Of a stretch of DNA of 32,000 nucleotides, positions 12,567-14,660 are shown in pieces (the stretch's first letter is position 1; each line of letters starts with the position of its first letter). Position numbers and translations under genes: made by a program. Below the pieces are notes generated by a model that had not been told where the DNA came from, ran no database searches, and was given only the letters and a program-made list of their open reading frames with translations. The DNA is from an uncultured Cocleimonas sp. (GTDB lineage Bacteria; Pseudomonadota; Gammaproteobacteria; Thiotrichales; Thiotrichaceae). The DNA lies in the NCBI RefSeq assembly GCF_947495625.1, contig NZ_CANLZW010000018.1, forward strand, positions 10,903 to 42,902. The letters run 5' to 3'.

Positions 12567-14660
12567 TTAATTTTTAAAGATATCTATTTTGGTTTCCAAA
12601 CACTTCCTCAAAGAGAGATCATTCACACCCACACCATACCAGCTATCAGGTTTTTGGAAAAAATCGAGACCTCTACCAATTTTAACTATCCATCCATTAT
12701 CAATACGAATTTCACGATCATGCATGTTTTCGTTGACGTTTAAATCTAGCATTACATCTAGCTCTAATAAACTTTGCTTTACATCCTGGAGCCGTTCAGC
12801 CATCTCTTTAACGTCAGTCTTCTCATCATAGCTTGTGATTAATTGGATTTTTTTAATTGAAGGCTGCTTTAAAATCGCCTCACAGAAACGTATAAAATTT
12901 TGTATCTGATGATTTGCACGAATATATGGGTCTTCGATAATTACCGACTTTGCTCCCTCAAGATACGGCACTATGATAGATTCATAACTGTAACCTGTGG
13001 AGTCATAAGTAATTGTGTAGTGTTGCTCTTTGAGCCCTGGCAAGATTACTTCAGCAATTGCGGGGGCTTCCATGTCAATACTATCTGTCAAATGAGAAGC
13101 TTCTTTAGCATCTTTTTCAGGTTCTTTTATTACTTCTGGCTTATGACTCTCACCCTCATCATACGACTCTGTGACATAGCCAGGTTTAATAGGATTAAGT
13201 GTTGCTTCAACCCCAATTGTCTCTGGACAATCTACTACGATCTCCTTATCTTCAACATTAAAGAATGAAAGCTCAATGTTTATGAATTCATCATCAGGCT
13301 TACGTTTGTTCATTTGCTCTTTAACGCGGCGGCGACCTTCAATGGCATAAACCACATACTCTTCAAATTCTTCATCAGAGCACTCTCCATGGGGGTGAAG
13401 CATTTTTAGATAAGATGCTACTGTCTTTTTAATACCCTTCTCGTCTCTACCCTCAACACACTTTCCTAGCTTTATACGCTTACTAACTTCTTCGTATCGA
13501 TTTGTATGCTTAAGCTGATAGTGAAACGCCTCTGCCAAGTAGTCGGTGATAAAACCATAGTTGTCCGTTAAAAACTCAGAGCTATTTTTAGGCATTTCCC
13601 AACCAGGCATATACATGCAGAATCTGTCCATAACCGCCAGATCAAACTCTTTAGGTAAAGGTTGAAATAGATCGTACTCTGTAGAATTAACAACCTGCTT
13701 AACACCTAAATCCAAATTACCGATAAAGGTCATGCTAGCATCAGCTATGACTTCTGCACCGCGAGAGAAACGGCCATTAGCCATGAAGTCTTTCATGATC
13801 TGGATTGTATCCGGATCTTTTACACGCATATTGCCGACTTCGTCGAAGGCAATAGTATCCCAATAACCTACCAAACCGACTTTCTTGCGAGCATTGTTGT
13901 AGAACAATGTAGCACTGCTAGTCTGACCGCCAGAAATTAGAGTAGAGTAAGGCGAGAATTCGCTATAAAAATAAGACTTCCCCGTACCTCTTGGACCAAG
14001 TTCGATAAAGTTATAATTAGCCTCTACTAGAGGTGCTAGACGCGCCAGAAAATGGAATTTAACGCGCTTACTCAATTTGGTTGGCTCCAGACCAACAGAA
14101 CGCATAATAATGTCTAACCAATCATCTCTTTTGTATGCTTTCCTCTTTTCACAGTAAGCATCATAGTCAAAACGGCTAAGCTGAATTGGTCGTAAGTCTT
14201 CGATATAAAAGGCATAATCGTCTTCTTCAATTTCATTGTGGCAAAGAGTCACCTCAGCCCAAATACCTCCTTCGAGCAAGCGATCATTATTTTTGTAGAA
14301 CTTCTCGCCAATTGCAATACGCTGTGAGTTGAAATTTTCCAGGCTTGCCCAGTGGCGCTTCTCCTTCTCTACATAGCGAACATGAACTTTATCAATAAAC
14401 TTATGACGGCCTTTTGTTGCAACTTTAGATTGAGCAGCATTCGCCTCATCTGGGCGAACATAATTATCATTAAGTGTTTCAAGAACAGCGCTTAAACCTT
14501 CCTGAATTTCATCTTCATCATCACTGGCACAAAAACGTGCTAACAGAAATTCCAAAACAAACGTCGGTACATTGGTACCTTTTTTGATACGATGCAAAAG
14601 GTCTTTTCTTACAGCCTTTCCTTCGAAGTGCTCGAGTAACTTCTCATCTAGTAAGTCCAT
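12567..14660 (-). CDS. brxL: BREX BrxL variant: BrxL N-domain + MCM-like AAA+ ATPase + C-terminal MITD1-like PLD-fold (MIT_C) domain instead of the Lon-like domain
   Basis: The N-terminus '[46 protein letters not shown]...NYVRPDEA' matches BrxL. Walker A is 'GPRGTGKS' and Walker B is 'IAFDEV'. The last ~150 aa ('GYSYES', 'IEDPYIR', 'FIRFCE', '[22 protein letters not shown]') match the MITD1 C-terminal domain as I recall it. No Lon Ser-Lys signature is visible. Confidence 0.85.
   Translation of the reverse strand: [697 protein letters not shown]

Follow-up and report, generated by a model that had tools for sequence, protein, structure and literature searches.

A BrxL protein with a PLD-fold MIT_C module in place of the Lon-like tail, encoded in a Type 1 BREX operon of an uncultured Cocleimonas species

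What might a BrxL protein do when the inactive Lon-protease-like tail known from other members of its family is replaced by a domain of a different fold? This question is raised by a 32,000-nucleotide stretch of DNA (hereafter the window) from an uncultured Cocleimonas sp. (positions 10,903 to 42,902 of contig NZ_CANLZW010000018.1, assembly GCF_947495625.1), which encodes a BrxL protein of 697 amino acids belonging to a bacteriophage exclusion (BREX) defense system. A preliminary description, made from the sequence alone, proposed that this protein has exchanged its Lon-like C terminus for a domain with a phospholipase D (PLD) fold resembling that of human MITD1, and it presented the architecture as novel. 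The exchange is borne out by our analysis. The novelty is not, because MIT_C-type BrxL is a common subtype, already modeled in databases and published, that makes up approximately one-third of BrxL-bearing Type 1 systems. The window BrxL, from an uncultured Cocleimonas sp., adds a further member to this subtype, and the idea is not new. What is added here is that the Asp of the HxRx4D motif is not invariant across the MIT_C family, that the linker ahead of the module is unconserved, and that the domain junction coincides with the boundary between hinge and C-terminal domain in the Lon-type protein.

The exchange is evident from domain searches. As the preliminary description had expected, Pfam reports BrxL_N, BrxL_ATPase, and MIT_C (PF16565) domains in the window BrxL, with no match to Lon_C at E ≤ 0.01. 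The MIT_C match covers all 142 of 142 profile positions at residues 556-696 (E 3e-51; 173.5 bits, cut-off 25). Pfam likewise finds no MIT domain, which binds ESCRT-III and is the hallmark expected of a true MITD1 orthologue. PADLOC model PDLC02508 aligns from residue 1 to residue 697 (model positions 1-695 of 698; 917.7 bits), and the MIT_C module by itself matches model positions 535-695. Among the TIGRFAMs models, TIGR02688 scores well above its cut-off (487.7 versus 329.3 bits), whereas TIGR02653, which describes Lon-related BrxL, reaches 565.5 bits against a cut-off of 628.25 and covers residues 4-496 only. The latter model falls short because the C-terminal Lon-like domain is replaced by a leash and a PLD-fold module. 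The protein belongs to the MIT_C or 'HKD-DNase' subtype (PDLC02508), with H647-D648-R649, and not to the Lon-related subtype.

The position of the junction can be read from the BrxL of Acinetobacter sp. NEB394 (8EMC and 8EMH; Shen et al. 2023), which plays the same role in a Type 1 system and aligns to window residues 4-496 (E 1e-126). The 8EMC alignment stops at window residue 496, which is chain residue 502, and in the Acinetobacter protein the hinge comprises residues 469-497 and limited proteolysis cuts near residue 500 (PMC10164562). By alignment, Lon-type similarity ends exactly at the boundary between hinge and C-terminal domain that proteolysis and cryo-electron microscopy define in that protein. 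We place the domain-swap junction at the end of residues 463-496 because this segment is the last part shared with Lon-type BrxL. Beyond it, the Acinetobacter protein carries an inactive Lon-protease-like tail that pairs rings tail-to-tail, whereas the window BrxL carries a leash of about 50 residues and a PLD-fold module. The whole protein consists, in order, of an N-terminal DNA-binding region, an MCM-like AAA+ domain, a hinge, an acidic leash of about 50 residues, and one PLD-fold MIT_C module. Its ATPase has intact Walker A and B motifs, and the AFDEV Walker B motif (D273 and E274) retains the Glu aligned to the E280Q position of 8EMH. Positions 12567-13160, to which the proposed swap had first been assigned, translate to residues ~501-697 plus the stop codon and encompass the linker and the C-terminal module. 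All sequence blocks quoted for this protein are present in the translation of 12567..14660 (minus strand), and the MITD1 blocks given for comparison in the preliminary description all agree with the PDB sequence. The entire protein is 100% identical to the NCBI entry 'BREX system Lon protease-like protein BrxL [uncultured Cocleimonas sp.]'.

This architecture had been recorded more than once. PADLOC v2 (2023) already includes PDLC02508 as a 698-position, full-length model of BrxL with the MIT_C architecture. Li et al. reported in Nucleic Acids Research in 2025 that MIT_C occurs on many BrxL proteins (PMC12065111), and a BREX survey in the same journal in 2026 found that an 'HKD-endoDNase' takes the place of the Lon-like domain in 1030 of 2913 Type 1 taxa with BrxL (PMC12839542). 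The survey also noted the Lys-to-Arg 'HRD' motif, presented an AlphaFold 3 model, and proposed that the domain assists PglZ by degrading invading DNA. The published proteins and the window BrxL share a SIGMA-HTH-like domain, an OB domain, an MCM-type AAA+ domain, and a PLD-fold HRD tail; in both cases the gene is the last of a Type 1 BREX operon having PglZ, and there is no difference of substance between them. The preliminary description had allowed that the fusion might prove to be the common, already characterized form of BrxL. It is indeed common and described, but the descriptions do not extend to experimental characterization.

Close relatives of the window BrxL were found in 330 species-representative genomes by a survey of the kind that had been suggested. 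The best 80 of these 330 are full-length matches with 68-88% identity, and they are drawn from the Alpha-, Beta-, and Gammaproteobacteria as well as from several other phyla. The three-domain architecture is present in 120 of 120 proteins among the protein-database matches listed, and the MIT_C module was also found on 24 plasmids, nearly all of them with the gene annotated brxL. In complete Escherichia coli genomes, a DNA-level search matched only Lon-related brxL genes, over 17% of the gene, although a very divergent MIT_C-type gene could escape such a search. Two of the related genomes deserve brief mention. On one contig of Tepidimonas fonticaldi (NZ_VJOO01000006.1, ~75-110 kb; loci L012 and L013), a pair of MIT_C-type brxL genes is separated by about 22 kb, and a second brxE-brxA-brxB-brxC set begins directly after the first brxL, such that this clade seems to be represented there by two tandem BREX operons. 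In Photobacterium leiognathi (CP183249.1, 1001599-1016312; locus L081), a decayed BREX locus has a split pglX and a brxL cut down to a 237-amino-acid MIT_C remnant that is annotated 'MIT C-terminal domain-containing protein'. This locus adjoins genes for TniQ and Csy2/Csy3/Csy4, an arrangement like that of a type I-F CRISPR-associated transposon. We had considered the short proteins of this annotation on long contigs as candidate stand-alone genes and rejected the idea, since the one examined (P0004) is what survives of the 3′ end of a decayed brxL.

The relationship of the C-terminal module to MITD1 is strong in both sequence and predicted structure. Human MITD1 (4A5Z/2YMB) aligns to residues 550-696 in a search of PDB sequences (E 3.6e-41), with 72 of 157 aligned positions identical (46%) and with the EDP, HDR, and GRGLD blocks in common. 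Chance similarity cannot account for E-values of this size, here or in the domain searches. An AlphaFold2 (AF2) model of residues 541-697 has a mean predicted local distance difference test score (pLDDT) of 85, and the best Foldseek match to this model is MITD1 4A5Z (template modeling score 0.80; E 3e-16). It is followed by catalytic members of the PLD superfamily, namely an engineered superPLD, a Streptomyces PLD, vaccinia F13, and mouse PLD3 (E 1e-3 to 1e-1; probability 0.6-0.99). On the strength of this model, the module has a PLD fold, and Pfam places one such module on each BrxL chain. The AF2 model of the full-length protein (mean pLDDT 49.5; predicted template modeling score 0.39) is confident only in the C-terminal module and is uninformative about domain packing. 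This weakness arises because the alignment is too shallow, with every sequence at least 74% identical. Outside the module the two proteins differ, because MITD1 has an N-terminal ESCRT-III-binding MIT domain, lacks an AAA+ ring, acts in cytokinesis, and is known for membrane binding, whereas BrxL is built on an AAA+ ring.

Conservation was assessed at two depths. Among 81 aligned full-length BrxL homologs, identity is approximately 80% in the N-terminal and ATPase regions (BrxL_N mean 81%) and 69% in the MIT_C module. In the linker, mean identity falls to 18% and no column is invariant; it is 44-60 residues long, with a median net charge of -5 and 75% disorder-promoting residues, which upholds the earlier suggestion of an acidic linker. 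Invariant positions in the module are E576-D577-P578, H647-D648-R649-E650-I651, G656, K660, and G662-R663-G664-L665-D666. D654 is retained in 80 of the 81 proteins. The second set comprises 82 diverse MIT_C representatives taken from an exhaustive search that gave 1268 clusters at 50% identity. In every MIT_C architecture of this set, H647, R649, an acidic residue at position 577 (D or E), G662-R663-G664, and D666 are maintained, and the G662-R663-G664-L665-D666 loop is near-invariant across the family. D577 corresponds to the 'conserved Asp/Glu after beta2' of PMC12065111.

The preliminary description had correctly read an HxR(x4)D motif in the module (HDREIRID at residues 647-654, versus HDREIRFN in human MITD1). 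It also regarded the Asp of this motif as a feature that distinguishes the BrxL module from MITD1, and this distinction does not survive the wider comparison. Position 654 is D, N, or S in every MIT_C group: 12 D, 9 N, and 3 S in MIT-type proteins; 30 D, 9 N, and 9 S in other MIT_C fusions; and 5 D, 1 S, and 1 N in divergent BrxL proteins. Several residues occur at this position, of which the Asn of human MITD1 is one, and Asp is present in half of the MIT-type proteins. Because position 654 is variable, the functional set is likely to be the His, the Arg, the acidic residue of beta2, and the GRGxD loop, a set that MITD1-type proteins share. The MIT_C family is also unusually 'flat', in that domain identity is approximately 38-42% whether BrxL, MIT-type, and other proteins are compared with members of their own group or of another. 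The window module is no closer to divergent BrxL tails (39-53% identity) than to human MITD1 (46%). We had asked in which direction the domain might have been transferred between BrxL and eukaryotic MITD1 and dropped the idea, since equal identities within and between groups allow no direction to be inferred.

Other MIT_C proteins offer hints regarding function. A MIT domain is present in 24 of 82 of the other MIT_C representatives, and the prokaryotic fusions outside the BrxL and MIT-type groups join MIT_C to Dynamin_N, NERD plus UvrD_C, Schlafen AlbA_2, S1, FHA, DUF2196, or IF2_N. A Paenarthrobacter plasmid gene, for example, carries MIT_C with IF2_N. Some of these non-BrxL fusions may be further, putative defense effectors. 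The Menshen protein NsnC provides another point of contact, because its PADLOC model (PDLC03880) matches the BrxL module weakly but significantly (E 1.2e-5). The PB-PLD1 domain of NsnC has the Asp/Glu-after-beta2 and HDR site in common with MIT_C (PMC12065111), but it belongs to a different system with ParB-associated partners, and its nuclease role is putative, as it is for the BrxL module. Taken together, the fusion partners (NERD/UvrD, Schlafen, dynamin-like, S1, and FHA) and the weak NsnC match favor an effector role.

An experimental precedent is DruE of type III Druantia, in which a single pocket that includes His1999-x-Arg2001 is built from two MITD1-like PLD domains and which is reported to lose both ATP-dependent degradation of single-stranded DNA and phage defense upon mutation of the pocket (D1740A) or the helicase (E266Q) (preprint 10.64898/2026.05.13.724313). 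Like BrxL, DruE is a defense protein in which a nucleic-acid motor is fused to a MITD1-like PLD fold, and its pocket contains HxR together with an Asp and an Arg. DruE differs in being a superfamily 2 helicase rather than an MCM-like ring, and its nuclease activity is reported from experiment, whereas that of BrxL is only predicted. Moreover, since each DruE chain has two PLD domains, it needs no pairing between subunits.

The module can also be compared with the single-HKD PLD nucleases Nuc, BfiI, and NucT, for which dimerization and a covalent phospho-histidine mechanism are established. These proteins and the BrxL module have in common a PLD fold, one half-site per chain, a His and a basic residue that open a beta-hairpin, and a subsequent Asp and glycine loop. 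On the basis of sequence and the secondary structure of the model, the module presents H647-x-R649-x4-D654-x7-G662-R-G-L-D666 on a beta-hairpin, a pattern that comes close to the classical motif HxK(x)4D(x)6G(S/G)xN. It differs from Nuc, BfiI, and NucT in having Arg for Lys, in having one additional residue before the glycine loop, and in lacking detectable sequence similarity to them.

Given these relationships, it seems reasonable to speculate that the AAA+ ring of MIT_C-type BrxL carries a tethered PLD-type nuclease that is active only once two modules pair, a reading that we regard as evenly poised between right and wrong. The preliminary description had put the module forward as a candidate effector, an idea that is supported and that is identical to the nuclease hypothesis already advanced in PMC12065111 and PMC12839542. 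In such a mechanism, ATP-dependent assembly of the N-terminal and ATPase domains would yield a hexameric ring that encloses double-stranded DNA, as in Lon-type BrxL. Each subunit would contribute half of a PLD site, consisting of H647, R649, D577, and the GRGLD loop, and two MIT_C modules would pair to make one phosphodiesterase site. Pairing would be needed because catalysis in the PLD superfamily takes two half-sites. It might occur between neighbors in one ring or across two rings, as with the Lon-like tail. The paired site would then cut phage DNA that is held or translocated by the ring, serving as a second nuclease beside the nicking activity of PglZ. The latter protein was reported in 2025 to be a metal-dependent nicking nuclease, and so the earlier statement that the BREX restriction effector is still unknown is outdated.

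Several observations are consistent with this proposal. The polar pocket is invariant across the 81 homologs, and its core residues hold in all MIT_C architectures, while the linker lacks any invariant column. Lon-type BrxL forms hexamers that encircle DNA, and its C-terminal domains, monomeric on their own, pair 1:1 across the equator of a tail-to-tail dodecamer (PMC10164562). Because of this 1:1 pairing, a module that pairs with itself at the C-terminal position would fit the known assembly.

Other observations count against a nuclease. The Arg stands in place of the Lys, and D654 is separated from the glycine loop by one residue more than in HxK(x)4D(x)6G. When a profile of the 82 diverse MIT_C sequences was compared with PDB sequences at E ≤ 10, it recovered only MITD1 and MIT domains, and classical HKD nucleases were absent from the matches. 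Since there is no reach to HKD nucleases at this level, only fold and topology equate H647 and R649 with the catalytic His and Lys. DruE likewise gave no sequence-level match to the module in the PADLOC search. To our knowledge, the only MIT_C protein with published functional data is human MITD1, and these data concern membrane binding and dimerization, not catalysis. Furthermore, characterized Type 1 BREX blocks replication and shows no visible DNA degradation, and the C-terminal domains of the Lon-type dodecamer lie far from the DNA, in a chamber approximately 80 Å wide (PMC10164562). We found no biochemical or genetic study of any MIT_C-type BrxL in the literature.

Perhaps the module is instead a non-catalytic assembly domain that takes over from the Lon-like tail in ring or subunit pairing and in regulation of the ATPase, with its pocket used for folding, pairing, or ligand sensing. 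The Lon-type C-terminal domain does drive ring-ring dimerization, lacks protease residues, and appears to regulate the ATPase, as judged from a Q661W mutant (PMC10164562). BrxL is also the best-conserved protein of the operon among related loci (~70% identity, versus ~51% for PglZ and 45% for PglX), which would fit a structural hub. In addition, MITD1 is said to dimerize. However, a disordered leash of 44-60 residues is ill-suited to a rigid equatorial contact, and DruE loses defense when its pocket is mutated. Moreover, an invariant His, Arg, Asp, and Gly-Arg-Gly at the position of the PLD catalytic site, maintained through more than 1000 clusters (50% identity) and many unrelated fusion partners, would be rare for a purely structural interface. 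We consider a solely architectural role somewhat unlikely for these reasons.

Two further roles are more improbable still. The module might bind phospholipid head groups and anchor the BrxL ring to the inner membrane, the site of phage DNA entry; a membrane-tethering arm was also raised by the preliminary description. The PLD-fold domain of MITD1 reportedly binds membranes, the module is 46% identical to it, and a long flexible leash is suited to a tether. Yet the prokaryotic fusion partners of MIT_C are directed at nucleic acids (NERD/UvrD, S1, and Schlafen), and the nearest defense relatives, NsnC PB-PLD1 and DruE, have been interpreted or shown to be nucleases, making a membrane anchor a decidedly long shot. 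We look with similar skepticism on a phosphodiesterase that acts on RNA, a nucleotide-derived signal, or a phospholipid and that serves as a regulator or an abortive-infection effector. The PLD superfamily does cover lipid, nucleic-acid, and nucleotide substrates (the Foldseek matches include PLD, PLD3, and F13), and phage DNA degradation has not been seen in the Type 1 systems characterized to date. However, the module is covalently joined to a ring that binds double-stranded DNA, and the MITD1-like pair of DruE degrades DNA.

Returning to the proposed nuclease, a more specific version can be formulated in which activity is gated by assembly. MIT_C modules would pair across two hexamers, like the Lon-like tails of the known dodecamer, and composite sites would form only when rings meet tail-to-tail on unmethylated phage DNA. 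This particular mechanism strikes us as unlikely, but its consequences would be considerable, as noted below.

The coordinates of the gene, together with those of its domains and neighboring operon genes, are given in Table 1. The brxL gene is the terminal member of a complete Type 1 BREX operon in the canonical order brxA-brxB-brxC-pglX-pglZ-brxL (12567-26553, minus strand), and in 79 of 80 related loci the gene immediately upstream of brxL is pglZ. For each operon protein, one PADLOC sub-model gives a full-length match that scores far above all others (1128 versus 197 bits for PglZ; 1716 versus 323 bits for BrxC), which indicates a distinct BREX-1 lineage rather than a sporadic domain swap.

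Table 1. Positions in the window of brxL, the parts of its product, and the other genes of the BREX operon
Feature	Position	Strand	Evidence or remark
brxL (MIT_C-type, also called 'HKD/HRD-DNase'-type BrxL), 697 aa	12567..14660	-	Open reading frame with ATG start
BrxL_N, residues 10-140	14241..14633	-	Pfam PF20442, E 1.1e-45; aligns to Acinetobacter BrxL 8EMC
AAA+ (MCM-like) BrxL_ATPase, residues 151-462	13275..14210	-	Pfam PF13337, E 3.6e-120
Walker A GPRGTGKS, residues 222-229	13974-13997	-	Motif read in BrxL ATPase
Post-ATPase hinge, residues 463-496	13173..13274	-	Final segment common with Lon-type BrxL
Acidic low-complexity linker, residues 497-549	13014..13172	-	Homolog alignment
MIT_C / PLD-fold module, residues 550-697	12570..13013	-	PF16565, MITD1 match, AF2, Foldseek
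E576-D577-P578, end of strand beta2	12927..12935	-	Asp or Glu at position 577 throughout the MIT_C groups examined
HDREIRID, H647-D654 (HxR(x4)D), start of beta5-beta6 hairpin	12699..12722	-	HDREIRFN in human MITD1
G662-R663-G664-L665-D666, loop after beta6	12663..12677	-	Place of GSxN in classical HKD motif
pglZ, 835 aa	14664..17171	-	PF08665; PADLOC PDLC02561, 1127.7 bits
pglX / brxX methyltransferase, 1436 aa	17181..21491	-	Pfam Eco57I and MmeI_Mtase; PADLOC PglX PDLC02527
brxC, 1240 aa	21512..25234	-	BREX_BrxC_wHTH, DUF6079; PADLOC BrxC PDLC02483, 1715.8 bits
brxB, 194 aa	25200..25784	-	PF08747; PADLOC PDLC02465
brxA, 264 aa	25759..26553	-	PF08849; PADLOC PDLC02445
brxE-family gene, 164 aa, first in operon	26550..27044	-	NCBIfam NF033447 BrxE_fam, E 1.4e-40, 139 bits (cut-off 40)

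A brxE-family gene overlaps the start of brxA, and it occupies the same place in two related loci (L013 of Tepidimonas fonticaldi and L024). BrxE is mostly discussed with BREX type 6, and its occurrence in a Type 1 operon is worth noting for that reason. In PglX, residues 1-676 are 44-52% identical among related loci and the C-terminal half is patchy, with approximately 30% identity or no match. Such a pattern fits a predicted variable target-recognition region in the C-terminal half.

On its low-coordinate side, the operon is flanked by a housekeeping cluster (thrS-infC-rplT-pheS-pheT-ihfA) whose guanine-plus-cytosine content equals that of the operon (0.404). A promoter and terminator scan of the spacer between brxL and thrS returned nothing above chance. 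The high-coordinate side contains recombinase-like genes and fragments. At 27325-28749 (plus strand) are three open reading frames in the same direction, of 83, 301, and 91 amino acids, that match no Pfam, NCBIfam, or PADLOC family; the product of the 301-codon frame ends '...HGLRHSYA...GHFRADITEVYLR', a sequence similar to the R-H-R-Y box by which tyrosine recombinases are known. A tyrosine integrase at 29951-30535 (plus strand) is divided between two open reading frames of 114 and 74 amino acids and is probably a frameshifted pseudogene. This split integrase marks the edge of a mobile or defense island. Beside it, a 107-amino-acid open reading frame at 30633-30956 (plus strand) resembles EF-Tu domain 3 (23.8 bits, below the Pfam cut-off of 27) and may be a stand-alone EF-Tu-like fragment.

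The means by which BREX stops phage are a matter of debate, and structural and genetic work on BrxL has all been performed with Lon-type proteins, in which the tail has no catalytic activity. A large sister clade whose PLD pocket looks intact is a direct experimental handle on whether BrxL can be a nuclease. If MIT_C modules do create composite sites only when two rings meet, then approximately one-third of BrxL-bearing Type 1 BREX systems would degrade DNA, unlike the Lon-type systems studied so far. Human MITD1, a cytokinesis protein with the same invariant pocket, would in that case be a latent phosphodiesterase. A positive result for the BrxL pocket would make it worth asking again whether MITD1 acts as an enzyme in cytokinesis.

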